From a virus (lineage: Duplodnaviria > Heunggongvirae > Uroviricota > Caudoviricetes): a DNA stretch of 17,179 bases. The stretch lies in IMG/VR virus record IMGVR_UViG_2537562215_000014. One strand, 5' to 3'. Below the pieces are notes generated by a model. That model saw nothing but the letters and a program-made list of their open reading frames with translations, did no database searches and was not told where the DNA came from. Positions 1,268 to 17,179 of the stretch are shown here, piece after piece; position 1 is the first letter of the stretch; every line of letters starts with the position of its first letter. The translations under genes and the position numbers were made by a program.

Positions 1268-2371
1268 ATGTACATTCAAGATATTCCTAAAGATTCAAAA
1301 TTTTGGGTTGTTCGATCTGGTGATGGCGGTATGTTTTATGACCACTTTGTGCACAACTCCATAGCAGCTATTGGGCACATTGACGCTATGGAATTTAGCG
1401 ATCAGACCCTCAGTAATAAAGATGAAGTGATTAAACTCGTTTATAATTACAAACAAACTTTGCTTGAAAAAAAGGAAACACTTGCATCTGCATCTAATAA
1501 AGCAGGCCAAGTTCTACGTTTCATTAATGAAATGTCAGTCGGTGATATAATTATAACTCTAGATGCAAGGAGAATAGTGGTCGGCAGGATCATATCTGGT
1601 CCTTATAAAGATATGGAAAATGTAACATTACTCAATGTTGATGGAACAACAGATGAAAAATTGCTTAAATTTACCCTTAGACGTAAAGTTGAATGGGGAA
1701 AAACGCAGTTTCGTGACAAACTTCCATTAGCCATAAATAATAGTTTCAGGGCTAATCAAACTGTTTTCTCAGCAAACGAGCACTGGAAAGAGCTTAATCA
1801 CTGGTTATCTGTTGCATTTATATCAGATAATGAAGCTTATATTTCCTCACGGATTGAGCAAACAGAAGGGATTAACAATCTTGACATTGCTCAATACTCC
1901 ATAATAATAAATAAAATTGAAGCTATTGCTCAAACAATCGCTAACAATGACAACTATCATTTCGATGATGATAAATTATTATCTCTCTTTGAAGATACAT
2001 ATAAAGAACTAAGAAAAAGTAGAACATTTACGGTAACGACACAACAGGTATTTCTTTCACCAGGAGATCTTTGGGCAAAAATATCTGGAAGCCGTAAAAA
2101 AAGCCTGTTAGTTATCTGCACATTTCTTATAATGTTCAATATTGAGCCATCTTTCGCAGATGAAAATGACAAAATATTTTTCGACAACAACTATGAAGCA
2201 ATATCTTTATTAATTAATAAAGTAAAACATGATGAAAACTTTGAGGAAGTAAAAAATGGATTAGCATTAAAAGTTCCTGCACAAAAACTAAACACAAAAA
2301 ACACCTCTACAAACCCCAATAAAAAACGCTATGATGATGATGTAGAACCAGACGACTTTGAAGGCATTTAA
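1268..2371 (+). CDS. hypothetical protein, cargo gene A (367 aa, soluble, acidic C-terminal tail); no family assignable by eye
   Basis: ATG at 1268 preceded by AAGGA (1256..1260, 7-nt spacing). Long uninterrupted ORF in visibly AT-rich DNA, where chance ORFs are rare. Starts 43 nt after the int stop. No Walker A, HNH or GS..DxD motif seen. Confidence 0.85.
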   Translation: MYIQDIPKDSKFWVVRSGDGGMFYDHFVHNSIAAIGHIDAMEFSDQTLSNKDEVIKLVYNYKQTLLEKKETLASASNKAGQVLRFINEMSVGDIIITLDARRIVVGRIISGPYKDMENVTLLNVDGTTDEKLLKFTLRRKVEWGKTQFRDKLPLAINNSFRANQTVFSANEHWKELNHWLSVAFISDNEAYISSRIEQTEGINNLDIAQYSIIINKIEAIAQTIANNDNYHFDDDKLLSLFEDTYKELRKSRTFTVTTQQVFLSPGDLWAKISGSRKKSLLVICTFLIMFNIEPSFADENDKIFFDNNYEAISLLINKVKHDENFEEVKNGLALKVPAQKLNTKNTSTNPNKKRYDDDVEPDDFEGI

Positions 2372-2375
2372 GAGG

Positions 2376-3029
2376 ATGATGAAGTTCATAAAAAAATGGT
2401 GGGATAACCATGATAAATCTAATAATTTTTTATCAGGTATCCATTACATCGTCATTTCGCTAGCTATCATAATTGGTGGCGCGTGGTCGTTGTATACCTT
2501 TGACGCATTACAAATGGCCAAAAATGCGGAAATCCAACTAAAAAAGGCTAACGAAGATTTAAAACAAATAAAAGAGCAAATTAAGGGCACTGACTCTAGC
2601 AGTATTGCTATTAATGTTATCCCGTTAAAAACACAGCTAGGAATGATTATTAATGTAACCATAAAAAATAACGGCAAACGACCATTATCCTTTGACACAT
2701 CCAAAGGAGCTTTAACTGTGTACAAAGTAAGCGCAAATGGCGATAAAGTTGAACAATCTCAATCTTTTACACCAAATCTCTATACATCTTTGAGAGATAA
2801 AAAACACTATCCAGAATCAAAAAGTAAATCATTATCAAAGACACATGTTTTAATAGGAGCAGAAAAAACCCTTAGCTATATTGTTGGATTAAATAAGCCA
2901 GGCGTTTATTATATTACATTTAGGTCAACACCAGATGATAATTTTGACACAGAAGAATTGAAAAACAAAAAACCTGTAGAATGGTTCGCTTCTTCATATG
3001 TTGAAATTACCCCACAAAAATATAAATAA
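2376..3029 (+). CDS. hypothetical bitopic membrane protein, cargo gene B (~217 aa; track ORF starts at TTG 2358, ATG 2376 or 2379 more likely)
   Basis: ATG 4 nt after the gene A stop (TAA 2369..2371), with AAGAGG at 2370..2375. Basic N-terminus MMKFIKKWWDNHDK, one hydrophobic helix LSGIHYIVISLAIIIGGAWSLYTF (about nt 2430..2498), then a charged heptad-like segment and a beta-rich C-terminal domain. AT-rich like gene A. Confidence 0.8.
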   Translation: MMKFIKKWWDNHDKSNNFLSGIHYIVISLAIIIGGAWSLYTFDALQMAKNAEIQLKKANEDLKQIKEQIKGTDSSSIAINVIPLKTQLGMIINVTIKNNGKRPLSFDTSKGALTVYKVSANGDKVEQSQSFTPNLYTSLRDKKHYPESKSKSLSKTHVLIGAEKTLSYIVGLNKPGVYYITFRSTPDDNFDTEELKNKKPVEWFASSYVEITPQKYK

Positions 3030-6250: not shown

Positions 6251-6280
6251 TTGCCTTTTTCCGGCATTTGCGGATATAGT
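6251..6280 (+). promoter_or_regulatory. PLE-like sigma70 promoter (-35 TTGCCT, 18-bp spacer, -10 TATAGT)
   Basis: Hexamers at 6251..6256 and 6275..6280, immediately downstream of vis, where P4 PLE is expected. Confidence 0.5.
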
Positions 6281-6343
6281 CTTTCCGTTGCCGCAAAATC
6301 GGCAGCCGGGCGTGAGAACCCGTGTAACTCGAAGGCGACATAT

Positions 6344-6365
6344 GACGCGCCATGCGTCTTTTTTT
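6344..6365 (+). terminator. Short hairpin followed by U7 in the PLE leader (candidate attenuator / immunity terminator)
   Basis: GACGCG-CCA-TGCGTC (6-bp stem including one G-U) followed by TTTTTTT at 6359..6365, ~60 nt downstream of the predicted PLE start. Confidence 0.35.
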
Positions 6366-6604
6366 GTGTCGCAATCAACGCCACAGAGCGCCAGATTATG
6401 GTGTGGCGTGTGGTTTGCCGTGCAGGTATGATCCTGTTCGCAATCGCATGTTATGCCACTGAGTCAATGGTAGCTCAGGCGGGGCAGCCTCCGGGCTGGC
6501 CGGTATTCTTCGAGGCCGGTATTCTCACCCCCGTCTGGGCTATCGCCATCGAGCGTGAGAACTCCGGCGATAGCAGTTATTTGCTACTCGAAGGAGGCTG
6601 CCTT

Positions 6605-10685: not shown

Positions 10686-10818
10686 ACGATATAGCATCAA
10701 TCCAAGTAAAAATGCGCTTTCATTTCACATTAACTTACAGCCATTGGTATACGATTAGGTATACGCACAAAAACTGAATTAAACAAAATCATTAAAAATC
10801 AAAGCAATACAATATTTA

Positions 10819-10840
10819 TTCAAACTCCGCCAGCCCACCA
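10819..10840 (+). other. candidate attR core (resembles the 3' end of ssrA/tmRNA, ending CCACCA)
   Basis: TTCAAACTCCGCCAGCCCACCA versus my recollection of the ssrA 3' end TTCAACTCCCGCCAGCTCCACCA (a similar but imperfect match by eye). No T-arm partner upstream, so it is a fragment, not a gene. Upstream are two direct GGTATACG copies (10746, 10758) that could be integrase arm sites. Confidence 0.35.
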
Positions 10841-10967
10841 ATCATGATTGGACGGTATAAGGACAACACCAATAAAAACAGGAAGTTAGCAGTCTCAGCA
10901 GGACACCGACCAGACGGTGAAGAGACATAAAAGGATACGCAAAGGAGCCGCGGCTCCTGGTGACATG

Positions 10968-10991
10968 AAAGCCCACAGATGTGGGCTTTTT
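10968..10991. terminator. hairpin terminator between the element and the autotransporter 3' end (possibly bidirectional)
   Basis: AAAGCCCAC-AGAT-GTGGGCTTT followed by TT on the plus strand; on the minus strand it lies 10 nt after the autotransporter stop (11001). Confidence 0.55.
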
Positions 10992-11000
10992 CGTTGATGG

Positions 11001-11372
11001 TCAGAACGACCAGTTCACACCAGCTACCCCGTTCCACGGGGATTCCACACCGGCACCATGGCTATACCCCACCCCAAGATGCCCGCTTAACGTACTGCTG
11101 AATGAGGCTTTAATACCTGCCTGGTATATTCCACGTCTGCCCGACAAATCATTGACGAAATTACCGTCACTATTCACTTTCACCCGGTTATCATCGACAA
11201 ATTCTTTGCGCACAGCCGCCTTCAGCCACGGCTCAACTTCCATACCGTTCCCCAGACGCATGTTGTAACTCAGCGTTGCACCCAGTTCACGATATAAACT
11301 GCGGGTATCGACTGATTTCGATTCCATGCCATTGGATAAATGATATTCAGGGTTATCAGCGATGAACCCCCG
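11001..11372 (-). pseudogene. autotransporter beta-barrel C-terminal segment, out of frame with the passenger segment (ends ...GVNWSF)
   Basis: C-terminal aromatic-x-Phe motif NWSF typical of type Va autotransporters. This frame is open back to the stop at 11373..11375; it is shifted relative to the 626-aa ORF at a C5 run (11367..11371). Confidence 0.75.
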
Positions 11373-13294
11373 TTAACGATGCATACGGCGTCAGGTTCCA
11401 GTTACCATCGGTAAATCGCATCCCGGTTTCAATGTGACCGCCCAGCCCGTTGCTGCGATAACTGCCGTTGGCGGCTCCACCGCTGCCAACCGTGGAGTCG
11501 CGAGCTTCGGTACCTGCTAATACCAATAAATTACCGCCATTTTCCAGCAACATATTGGTCGCTAAATTGCCGGAAATGGAAAAAGTGCCGTACTGGTGAG
11601 TACCGCTGATTTCAATACCGTTAGCCGTGCTCGTCTGGAGAGCGGCACCGCTGTTCTGGACGATATCTGTCGCTTTGCCATTATCGTTAACTGTCAGCGT
11701 ACCGCCTTCATTGATCTTTGTTTTTATTGCCTCTCCGTTAGCTGAAACTGTTTGTATTCCGCCGTCGTTAATCGTTGTCTCATTCGCCACCCCCTCGACG
11801 ATTTGTTCGCCGCCGGTGAGCGTCGTGCCTGTCGCAGTGGCTTTTGTTTTGACGATCTCCCGTCCGCCCGTATTGACCTGTGTTTTGTCAGAAGAGGTGT
11901 CTGACTCCATGGTTAACACGCCGCCATTTGCCAGCAGGATATTGTTCGCCGCACCCTGCTCGATGCTGAACGCGACGCCATCCGCGCGTGTTCCTGTGAC
12001 CCGCGTCGCCCTGGTGGTTGCAACCAAAGCGTCCTGGCTACTCTGCTGTATCCCCGTTGCGCTGCCTTTCTCCCGCACATCGAGTGTGCCGCCGTCATTA
12101 AGCACCGAGTTTTCAGCCAGACCGCCCTCATTAACTACCTGTGAACACCCATTAATAATGGAACCTTCCGCTGTCCCGTTTGCCATAATTTGTTGTAGGC
12201 CAGAGACGATATCGGTATTGATTGCCTTACCATAATTCTGAACGGTTTGCGTGCCACCATTGATGTGTGTTTTCTCTGTTGACCCACCATCAACAATTTG
12301 TTCACCACTTTCGATATTTGCCTCAGTGGCTAATCCATATACCGTTTGCTTGCCACCTTTGATATTTGCTTTATCAGAAGTGGCACTGGCATATATTGTT
12401 TGGGTGCCAGCACTATTGAGTACAGTGCCAACATCTTTTCCATAAACATCCATTTTGCCGTTGGCATTAATAATCGTATCAACTGCCCGGGAACCAGTGA
12501 CGACTGTTAATGAGCCAGCGTTTTCCAGCACTACATTTTTAGCTTCTGAATTCCTGATGTAGAAAGCATCACCATAACTGTTGGTTCCTTCGATAAGGGT
12601 TCCGGAAGTTGTGGAAGCAATTAATGCGCCGCCGGATTGTTGCTCAACATGCTTAGCCTCACCACCGTCCTGAACCTCCAGAACGCCACCATTATTAAGT
12701 CTGGTGGTATCTGTTTTAGCCTCCTTCTGGACAATCAGCTTACCGCCAGCATCAACGGTAGTATTTTTCGCCGAGGTTTTAGCCACTACCGTCAGTTCGC
12801 CGGTATTTTCCAGCACAACATAATTAGCCTCCCCTCCGGTAATAGTGAAGTGAGAGAGCTTGTTGTATCCTTCAATATCAGTCCCTGCGCCCGTGTTGGC
12901 AACTAAAGCACTGCCCGTCTCCTGGTTAACCCCATGTGCAATACCACCGGTATAGACAATCAGCGAGCCTCCGGCGCTAATATTGCTGCCAGTTGCCGTA
13001 CCATCTTTCTCAACAACCTGCCGGCTCCCGGAGGATATAATTGTCGTGTCAGCTTTCCCGCCGCTCTTGATATTTTGCGTTCCGCCGTTGATATTGGTAC
13101 CCGTGGCAATACCATGATTATTAATATTCTGTGTACCACCATTGATTATGGTATTGGTCGCGTTTCCGGTAACATCCATTACCCCGCCGTTATCTATTCG
13201 GGTCGCATCAGCTTTAGCATTCGTTAAAACTGACATTGTTCCTTTATCTTTAATAATCGTCTTGTTTGCCGAACCATATGCGTTTATGTCTAAA
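11356..13294 (-). pseudogene. AIDA-type autotransporter adhesin, passenger segment distal to the IS insertion
   Basis: 626-aa ORF rich in ~19-aa Gly/Thr/Asn passenger repeats (TTINGG, GGTQ, NVVLENAG). The reading frame continues seamlessly across the IS insertion point. Confidence 0.8.
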
Positions 13295-13302
13295 TGTAGT
13301 GG

Positions 13303-15523
<2,221 letters not shown>

Positions 15524-15861
15524 AAATTTCATCCTCTGAAAAGTGAATACTGAGTAGCGTTTAAGCGACCTTAGCTTTGCTGCAACATCAGCCCACAGGC
15601 ACCAGACCAGGGGATTCATCCTGAAGAGACAGCGCAAGTGTATTGTGTTCACCGCTCATCAAAGACATCATGATGAAATGATGATATTCCGCATAAGAAT
15701 GAGGCATTTTTTAAACGCAGTGCGCTGAAGTGTGGTTGGATAAAAAAGTCAATCCATTCAGGAAATACGGGCGTATTCTTTTCTTTCGACAATGAGGCCG
15801 TTGGCAAAATAAAATGATTTACATAATCGTTTCTGATGAATATCTTCTGCTCACATAAAAA

Positions 15862-16190
15862 TCACACAATAACTTTGAGATCGCAGATTGTTTTACTTTT
15901 ACAGCATTCGTCCCCCCATTGTTGGGCAAATATAGATTGGGCCAGAGCACGAAAGTTAATACCACGTTTGCACAGCTCCTCCAACAGCACGACAAGATGC
16001 CACATACTGCGCCCCAGTCGGTTCGGTTTACAGACTACCCGTGCGTCCACCGCCGATAATGTCCTGACCAGTTTTTTCAGTCCGGACCTCCTGCCACGGT
16101 TTTACGTTGAAGTGGTAACCCTGAGCACGCAGTTCTTCAGTCAGGCGTGGTGTACCGTAACCCTATTATTGATGGGTAAGATCAAAAATA
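15862..16190 (-). pseudogene. serine recombinase (DNA invertase, Pin/Hin/Gin family) remnant
   Basis: Fragment ...VVCKPNRLGRSMWHLVVLLEELCKRGINFRALAQSI aligns with the invertase catalytic-domain motif VVWKLDRLGRS...L..EL.ERGI.F.SL.DSIDT. In-frame stop and frameshift upstream; diverged C-terminus. Confidence 0.65.
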
Positions 16191-16289
16191 CTTTCAGGCA
16201 GCTAAGGAAAGTTGAACCAGACATTAGAATAAATATTTCAACCAATTACAGCACCAATTCAGACACCGCCAGCTCAACAAATAAATCAA

Positions 16290-16322
16290 GGGGTTACGTG
16301 AAAGCGTAGCCCCTTTTTCTTT
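16290..16322. terminator. hairpin terminator downstream of the AT-rich pentapeptide-like ORF (possibly bidirectional)
   Basis: GGGGTTACG-TGAAAG-CGTAGCCCC followed by TTTTTCTTT on the plus strand. On the minus strand it lies ~115 nt after the ORF stop (16436). Confidence 0.55.
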
Positions 16323-16435: not shown

Positions 16436-17179
16436 TCATTGAAAACTGCTTTTAGAACTTGATACAACGGGACTAGTCACAACAGGACTATTCTCAACGG
16501 GATCATCCTCAGAGGAACTATCATCAAAGTCATCATCCATAAATAAAATATCATCGAATGGTGCCACGCCCGTGATGAGTTTTATTTTATTATTACGATC
16601 AGTCAAGACTCCACTTAAACCGTTTTCGCTCACAGGTTTTAATGATTTTTCATTACTCTTGTTGTAAGCAGGCGCATTAAAAATACACGGAGTATCAAGA
16701 TCAAACAATGACGTTCCCCAGTTCACATATTGAATATCATAGTTACTGAAGTTCTGTCCAGAAAAGAAGCATCCCTTAAAATCCAATCCACCTAAATTAT
16801 ATAAACCATCCTCTTCTTTTTGGAGAGTAATGTTAATTTTGGCTATCTCCCGGACATCATCGCCATTTTTATATTTGAATACCGTTTCAAGATTTTCCCC
16901 ACACAGTTTGACTTCTGGAAATAATTTGAAATCAAAGCCTATATTATTATGTATCAACGTAGATGAACAAAAGATGGAGAAAGCTTGCAGTGCTGAATTA
17001 TAGCTTTCGATTTTATCCTGAGGCTGCGCTCTTGGTAAAAACTCATAGCAACATTCATAAAAATTAAGTAGAAACTCTGAAGACCTTCCATTTTTATCAA
17101 ATAATATCCCCTTGAACTCATTCACAAACGCATCTTTTTTTTCTTGAATATCTATGTGGTGTTCCTTTGACTCTGACAA
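16436..17179 (-). CDS. hypothetical AT-rich protein with pentapeptide-repeat-like core and acidic/Ser-rich C-terminus; 5' end lies beyond the window
   Basis: 247 codons open to the window edge in AT-rich DNA. Segment NLGGLDFKGCFFSGQNFSNYDIQYVNWGTSLFDLD resembles pentapeptide repeats. C-terminus DDDFDDSSSEDDPVENSPVVTSPVVSSSKSSFQ. Confidence 0.6.
   Translation of the reverse strand: MSESKEHHIDIQEKKDAFVNEFKGILFDKNGRSSEFLLNFYECCYEFLPRAQPQDKIESYNSALQAFSIFCSSTLIHNNIGFDFKLFPEVKLCGENLETVFKYKNGDDVREIAKINITLQKEEDGLYNLGGLDFKGCFFSGQNFSNYDIQYVNWGTSLFDLDTPCIFNAPAYNKSNEKSLKPVSENGLSGVLTDRNNKIKLITGVAPFDDILFMDDDFDDSSSEDDPVENSPVVTSPVVSSSKSSFQ

Follow-up and report, generated by a model that had tools for sequence, protein, structure and literature searches.

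What is the long AT-rich open reading frame that runs off the right-hand edge of this stretch of DNA (17,179 nucleotides; hereafter the window), and does it encode a pentapeptide-repeat protein resembling the secreted effectors of enterobacteria, as the original prediction proposed? On the minus strand, the list of open reading frames and its translation give a frame that runs without interruption from the window edge at position 17179 to a TAA stop codon at 16436–16438, a total of 247 codons. The GC content of this ORF (16436–17179) is 35.3%, with values of 0.43, 0.32 and 0.32 at the three codon positions, compared to around 45–64% in the P4-like and autotransporter DNA that surrounds it. Given the base composition, 247 open codons would occur by chance with a probability of 2.6e-9, and in 5,000 shuffles of the ORF's 744 nucleotides the open run never exceeded 180 codons, in agreement with the earlier view that such a frame is unlikely to be fortuitous. 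The N-terminus, which had been placed outside the window, does lie beyond position 17179. In genomes that are 99.9% identical over this stretch the frame stays open for a further 210 codons, yielding an ORF of 457 amino acids, and in one of these relatives (L001, from strain cq9) a Shine–Dalgarno-like sequence, GAGGAA, is found 7 nt 5′ of the ATG.

Comparison with complete genomes identified the gene. The 880 nt around the ORF have matches in 3,117 of 5,426 complete E. coli genomes, nearly always as a single chromosomal copy, and the matched gene is annotated in RefSeq genomes as ypjCB, encoding a 'YpjCB family protein'; in L001, ypjCB comprises 1,374 nt. The Pfam profile PF17621 (DUF5508) matched the window fragment with 550.6 bits (cut-off 27) over profile positions 17–263 of 263. 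The YpjCB model NF050179 matched it with 544 bits against a model threshold of 650 bits, with half of the gene missing from the fragment, and matched the full-length 99.9%-identical relative with 942 bits, with DUF5507 added at the N-terminus. Intact YpjCB proteins have 449–484 residues. K-12 MG1655 carries the same gene at the same locus, and at the DNA level K-12 ypjB and the window fragment share 96.5% identity, but in K-12 a nonsense codon divides ypjCB into ypjC (b2650, DUF5507, 160 amino acids) and ypjB (b2649, DUF5508, 263 amino acids), whereas the allele group of the window is intact in L001. The ORF at 16436–17179 can thus be securely assigned as the C-terminal 247 codons and stop codon of ypjCB, corresponding to the ypjB part in K-12, with the N-terminal approximately 210 codons lying off the window edge; it is half of a catalogued but uncharacterised gene and belongs to a known family, not a new one.

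The neighbourhood of the ORF also matches that of ypjCB. K-12, O157:H7 and three other strains share the order ypjA, a 39-amino-acid ORF, a pinH remnant, ypjCB, the tRNA-Ile gene ileY, an amylase-like gene and glaH, in which ypjA encodes an adhesin-like autotransporter and the pinH remnant derives from a serine recombinase. To the left of the ORF in the window lie fragments of ypjA followed by a resolvase remnant, so the ORF occupies the conserved position of ypjCB (ypjA, recombinase remnant, ypjCB, ileY). The serine recombinase or invertase remnant, 3′ of ypjCB on the minus strand (15862–16050), was detected with the Pfam Resolvase profile (E = 1.1e-4) and corresponds to a partial recombinase in relatives and to the pinH pseudogene in K-12. 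Antisense to it is an ORF of 157 amino acids (15836–16309, plus strand) that has no Pfam match and is probably spurious. Around 120 nt 3′ of the ypjCB stop codon, a GC-rich hairpin with flanking T and A runs (16288–16315) was called as a terminator-like site on the plus strand; judged by its sequence, it is a candidate and possibly bidirectional terminator between ypjCB and the recombinase remnant and ypjA, and it may also be used on the minus strand.

The original prediction further treated the ORF as distinct from the P4 backbone and from the autotransporter alike, a reading that the locus order makes reasonable. Positions 10818–11486 of the window align to a K-12 segment (L002 7964–8631) comprising the right end of the cryptic prophage CP4-57, with the psaA remnant, and the 3′ end of ypjA, and the right end of the P4-like element coincides with that of CP4-57; the element therefore sits where CP4-57 sits in K-12. 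As this alignment indicates, different elements share one attachment site upstream of ypjA. Because the P4-like element takes the position of CP4-57, it is no part of the ypjA–ypjCB unit, and the ORF is separate from it.

Several other features of the region were observed in the course of this comparison. In strain cq9, a fragment resembling a tRNA 3′ end and a tyrosine integrase island (L001 19980–20320 and 20505–21821) lie upstream of ypjCB, at a position where K-12 and O157 carry an intact ileY, and ARAGORN found no complete tRNA within L001 17000–22000; the tRNA fragment and the integrase island indicate that ileY serves as an integration site in that strain. Within the window, an IS3-family insertion of around 1.26 kb (approximately 13297–14552) breaks ypjA relative to K-12, O157 and L001. 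It carries two minus-strand ORFs, an orfA with an HTH_Tnp_1 domain (14169–14516) and an ORF with an rve domain (13549–14049), and its two flanks share 5 bp in K-12 coordinates, suggestive of a target duplication; an Rfam match to 'isrC' (14362–14484) falls within the insertion. Further to the left, Rfam matches to C4 antisense RNA, a1/b1 targets and isrK (6274–6550, plus strand) mark the immunity RNA region of a P4-like satellite. Two overlapping AT-rich ORFs of 367 and 223 amino acids (1268–3029, plus strand; around 33% GC, no Pfam match) lie between a P4-type integrase (1–1224) and the psu and delta genes and are missing at the equivalent place in L001. For the first of them, PADLOC gave a match to the candidate defence family PDC-S02 (E = 2.7e-18), and a type II restriction enzyme model matched it weakly; the pair looks like variable defence cargo of the P4-like satellite.

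How widely YpjCB is distributed was examined with several searches. A phmmer search with the fragment against 1.84e9 cluster representatives returned 27 matches, of which only two cover the fragment (81–83% identity), the remainder being short fragments at 60–98% identity or multi-stretch compositional matches to giant low-complexity proteins. In two word-index searches, every match with a source name among those listed came from E. coli or Shigella, at 72–99% identity. When 185,579 species were searched, each represented by one genome, the gene turned up only in E. coli, Shigella flexneri and a single 2.8-kb contig. The label of this contig (L004, DEQI01000374.1, 2,799 nt) assigns it to a Planococcaceae metagenome-assembled genome. 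However, the YpjCB that it encodes shares 85% identity with the query protein, and over the window ORF the contig DNA agrees with the K-12-type allele, so it is probably E. coli contamination of the bin. No phage record encodes YpjCB, and of four 'plasmid' matches, three proved to be records the size of a chromosome and the fourth a partial match. The sole PHROGs match was phrog_30093, a family of unknown function; PADLOC gave no match for YpjCB, and a single-sequence search of the PDB returned none. Judged by these sequence searches, the family seems not to extend beyond E. coli and Shigella. Within complete E. coli genomes it occupies its fixed site in about 56%, K-12-type strains included, and is missing from about 44%.

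Having established the identity of the gene, we asked how far its description as pentapeptide-repeat-like holds. Residues 127–161 of the fragment (16697–16801, minus strand) read YNLGG LDFKG CFFSG QNFSN YDIQY VNWGT SLFDL, an uninterrupted series of seven pentads, each centred on a hydrophobic residue that in five of them is preceded by D or N. A run of at least seven pentads arose in 494 of 20,000 shuffles, and such a run together with the D/N score in only 10 of 20,000. The pentads are nearly invariant between alleles, and the AlphaFold2 model places period-5 β-bridges at them, consistent with around 1.75 turns of a possible quadrilateral β-helix. In this YpjCB resembles the pentapeptide-repeat proteins Qnr and MfpA and others of the Rfr fold, with which it shares the A(D/N)LXX pattern. 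The short pentapeptide-type element is thus real, but repeats do not make up the ORF overall: the seven units span 35 residues and account for 14% of the fragment, or 8% of the complete protein. No Pfam pentapeptide model matched the full protein or the fragment at E ≤ 1, and excised segments scored 13.2 bits with PF00805 (cut-off 20.2; E = 0.067) and 11.4 bits with PF13576 (cut-off 27). A PDB search with the family profile gave as its sole match a Qnr protein, aligned precisely over the pentads but non-significant (E = 8.8), and fold searches found neither a pentapeptide-repeat (Rfr-fold) structure nor any other significant match. We therefore rejected membership of the pentapeptide-repeat families (PF00805, PF13576 and PF13599), for which profile scores are below threshold, no Rfr-fold match was found and seven units make fewer than two coils as opposed to a long tandem array. 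The proposed kinship with the EspX group was likewise not borne out. YpjCB resembles EspX/PipB2-type effectors in being encoded by an AT-rich enterobacterial island gene with a pentapeptide element, but it lacks a Pfam pentapeptide domain and the phmmer search detected no sequence relationship, returning only YpjCB sequences or fragments and compositional matches. Some members of the EspX/PipB2-type families are themselves pseudogenes in K-12.

The remainder of the protein was considered using an AlphaFold2 model of the fragment, built with a 20-sequence alignment, that has an overall pLDDT of 60.5. Residues 7–154 were modelled at a pLDDT of about 70–90, with helices at residues 11–22, 33–50 and 53–78 and strands at 84–93, 96–105 and 108–118 that form a β-meander leading into the pentads. 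The three helices and the three-strand meander (residues 84–118) make up a folded core of the C-domain (16826–17149, minus strand), which contains a segment, NFYECCY...PRAQPQDK, that is invariant in two alignments; the pentads are predicted by the model to cap this domain as a β-helix. A papain-like Cys–His enzyme built around the invariant ECC was considered and rejected, as some alleles have Asn in place of the candidate His and no such fold was matched. The model of the full-length protein had a pLDDT of 42.7, with the N-domain below 50, and provided no usable fold for DUF5507. The sequence contains neither a hydrophobic or transmembrane segment (maximum 19-residue hydropathy of 0.87) nor a signal peptide, and the protein has a pI of 4.95 and 11 cysteines. 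Together, these features predict YpjCB to be a soluble acidic protein composed of a DUF5507 N-domain, a linker of variable length, a C-domain capped by the pentads and a disordered tail of around 90 residues. A published table lists ypjB among the genes for membrane proteins, an assignment to which the sequence, with no hydrophobic segment, lends no support.

The C-terminal tail of around 93 residues (16439–16717, minus strand) is predicted to be disordered on the basis of its composition, its charge and a pLDDT below 50 for residues 155–247, and its last 47 residues are Ser-rich with a net charge of −10, just as the acidic, Ser-rich tail had been described. Across 30 alleles, most columns of the tail segment VSENGLxGVLxDRxxKIKxITGVAPFDDILFMDDDFDD reach a conservation of 0.83–1.0. 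The segment includes the acidic–hydrophobic motif APFDDILFMDDDFDD (16520–16564, minus strand; column conservation 0.83–1.0). After this motif, the alignment of alleles reveals a variable end rich in Ser, Pro, Glu and Asn (16439–16519, minus strand), and the last 20–27 residues following MDDDFDD take nine different forms in the 29 sequences that have the motif. A conserved motif followed by a variable end suggests, from the alignment, a putative short linear binding motif. Switching of tails by an invertase, conceivable with the pinH remnant adjacent, was rejected, since the different tails are simply allelic and occupy one position, and all that is left of the recombinase is a fragment of 168 nt.

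Alleles of ypjCB range from 80 to 100% in nucleotide identity, with 365 genomes at 99% or above, 1,505 at 95–99%, 1,072 at 90–95% and 119 at 80–90%. Identity shifts abruptly along the gene; L010, for example, matches L001 at 100% for around 600 nt and then at 91–95%, a pattern of mosaic alleles that indicates intragenic recombination. Whole-gene dN/dS, estimated by the Nei–Gojobori method, was 0.67–0.91 for divergent pairs and 0.26 for L001 and K-12. Values for the folded C core were 0.24–0.80, and 0.24–0.47 in most pairs, with the N-domain, linker and tail at about 1 or above in several pairs. Six alleles were analysed over their full length, and three of these are disrupted (a nonsense codon in K-12, a frameshift in L009 and an internal stop in L010); the O157:H7 allele is intact, and copies disrupted by IS1 and IS3 also occur. 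Three intact alleles that differ at 107–177 nucleotides nevertheless all hold a frame of 449–484 codons open, which happened in just 0.3–2% of trials in which the same substitutions were placed at random (P = 0.003–0.02), and the indels between intact divergent alleles, of 24 and 105 nt, are all multiples of 3. Because an open frame of this length is so improbable by chance, and given the improbability of the intact alleles, the in-frame indels, the low dN/dS of the C core and the invariant motifs, we conclude that ypjCB is a real coding gene and one that is probably under selection.

According to published work, the ileY/ypjC region is bound by Hha, which induces ypjC about 9-fold (PMC2408971). 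The sole phenotype on record belongs to K-12 ypjC, the N-terminal pseudogene fragment: its deletion rendered biofilms slightly more colonisable by strain 55989, constitutive ypjC expression had no significant effect, and a mutant in 55989 was not obtained by the authors (PMC3646849). A GalR site has also been predicted within ypjCB. No report of secretion or translocation of YpjCB was found in the literature searched.

What might such a protein do? We propose that ypjCB, which lies in DNA bound by Hha, a partner of H-NS, is an AT-rich accessory gene gained by horizontal transfer, dispensable and often lost, whose frame selection would keep open where it is intact. Within the bacterial cell, its product would serve as a binding or adaptor protein, in which the folded C-domain and mini β-helix may provide a rigid interaction surface and the acidic–hydrophobic motif APFDDILFMDDDFDD may function as a docking peptide for a basic surface on a partner. 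The fast and mosaic evolution of YpjCB suggests that this partner itself varies and could be, for example, a mobile element, a phage or a competitor. From its lack of export signals we infer a cytoplasmic location, although type III or other signal-less export would also be compatible with that lack. Taken as a whole, this explanation, which joins the identity of the gene and the anatomy of the protein to a binding or adaptor mode of action, has in our judgement a slightly better than even chance of being correct; for the inferred mode of action by itself, an intracellular binding or adaptor protein encoded by an accessory gene of the Hha region, we put the chances somewhat below even.

The patterns of divergence and disruption described above could also be those of a decaying relic, in which ypjCB would be leftover cargo of an ancient element integrated at ileY, without function and eroding at lineage-specific rates. 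High whole-gene dN/dS between divergent pairs, values of at least 1 in the N-domain, linker and tail of several of them, the collection of nonsense, frameshifted, internally stopped and IS-interrupted alleles, the absence of the gene from many complete genomes, the degraded pinH invertase adjoining it and the want of a homolog or known function all favour this account, and the combination of a whole-gene dN/dS near 1 with pseudogenes in half of the examined alleles would fit drift towards loss as well. Against erosion stand divergent alleles that are all open and differ by in-frame indels, the low dN/dS of the C core in most pairs, and pentads and several other motifs that remain invariant, and we regard the relic account as rather unlikely.

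Two further accounts assign YpjCB a role in conflict, with a host or with an invader. In the one closest to the original prediction, it would be a secreted effector that reaches host cells through a LEE or ETT2 type III system or in some other way, with EspX/PipB2-like pentads and a tail that acts as a host-interaction motif. The gene does lie in an AT-rich, tRNA-adjacent and Hha-bound island beside an adhesin gene, evolves fast and is intact in O157:H7 as opposed to K-12; its product has a short pentapeptide-like stretch, and its first 21 residues are rich in Ser and Asn with no acidic residue, a composition that resembles type III signals. The conserved acidic–hydrophobic motif and the SSSEDD cluster of the disordered tail are likewise reminiscent of eukaryotic linear motifs. 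All of this amounts to general resemblance, and it is opposed by the lack of detectable homology to EspX, to other effectors or to pentapeptide proteins, of an Rfr-fold match and of secretion data in the literature searched, as well as by the 11 cysteines and by the gene's occupying the same site in a majority of complete E. coli genomes, those of K-12-type strains among them; we give the effector account little credence. The other account invokes a factor against phages or mobile elements, or a mimic of nucleic acid or of the SSB tail, whose acidic tail would compete for DNA-binding or SSB-interacting proteins. It draws on the strong acidity of the tail and its conserved motif, in which MDDDFDD resembles the SSB C-terminal sequence MDFDDDIPF, on the rapid mosaic evolution and frequent loss that are typical of conflict genes, and on the location of ypjCB between two integration hot spots, the ssrA-side element and ileY. 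Yet the motif is internal in YpjCB and at the extreme C-terminus in SSB, PADLOC has no match, no phage carries the gene, and ypjCB stands alone as a gene and encodes no domain recognisable as an enzyme or sensor, leaving this account just as improbable as the effector one. A bolder version treats YpjCB as a species-restricted, rapidly diversifying interaction factor, either a signal-less exported effector or a decoy against phages or competitors, whose mini β-helix, APFDDILFMDDDFDD and CK2-like SSSEDD cluster would engage a protein of a host or invader and whose mosaicism would reflect an arms race, not decay; we consider it quite unlikely. The intracellular binding or adaptor protein remains the reading that we prefer.

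What had appeared to be an effector-like pentapeptide protein is thus a catalogued orphan gene of E. coli, so this part of the window adds no new family. It keeps some value as a tractable lineage-restricted gene, encoding a common, E. coli-specific protein with neither homologs nor a known fold relative. Past screens used the broken K-12 copy, and the function of YpjCB could be probed with its intact alleles.
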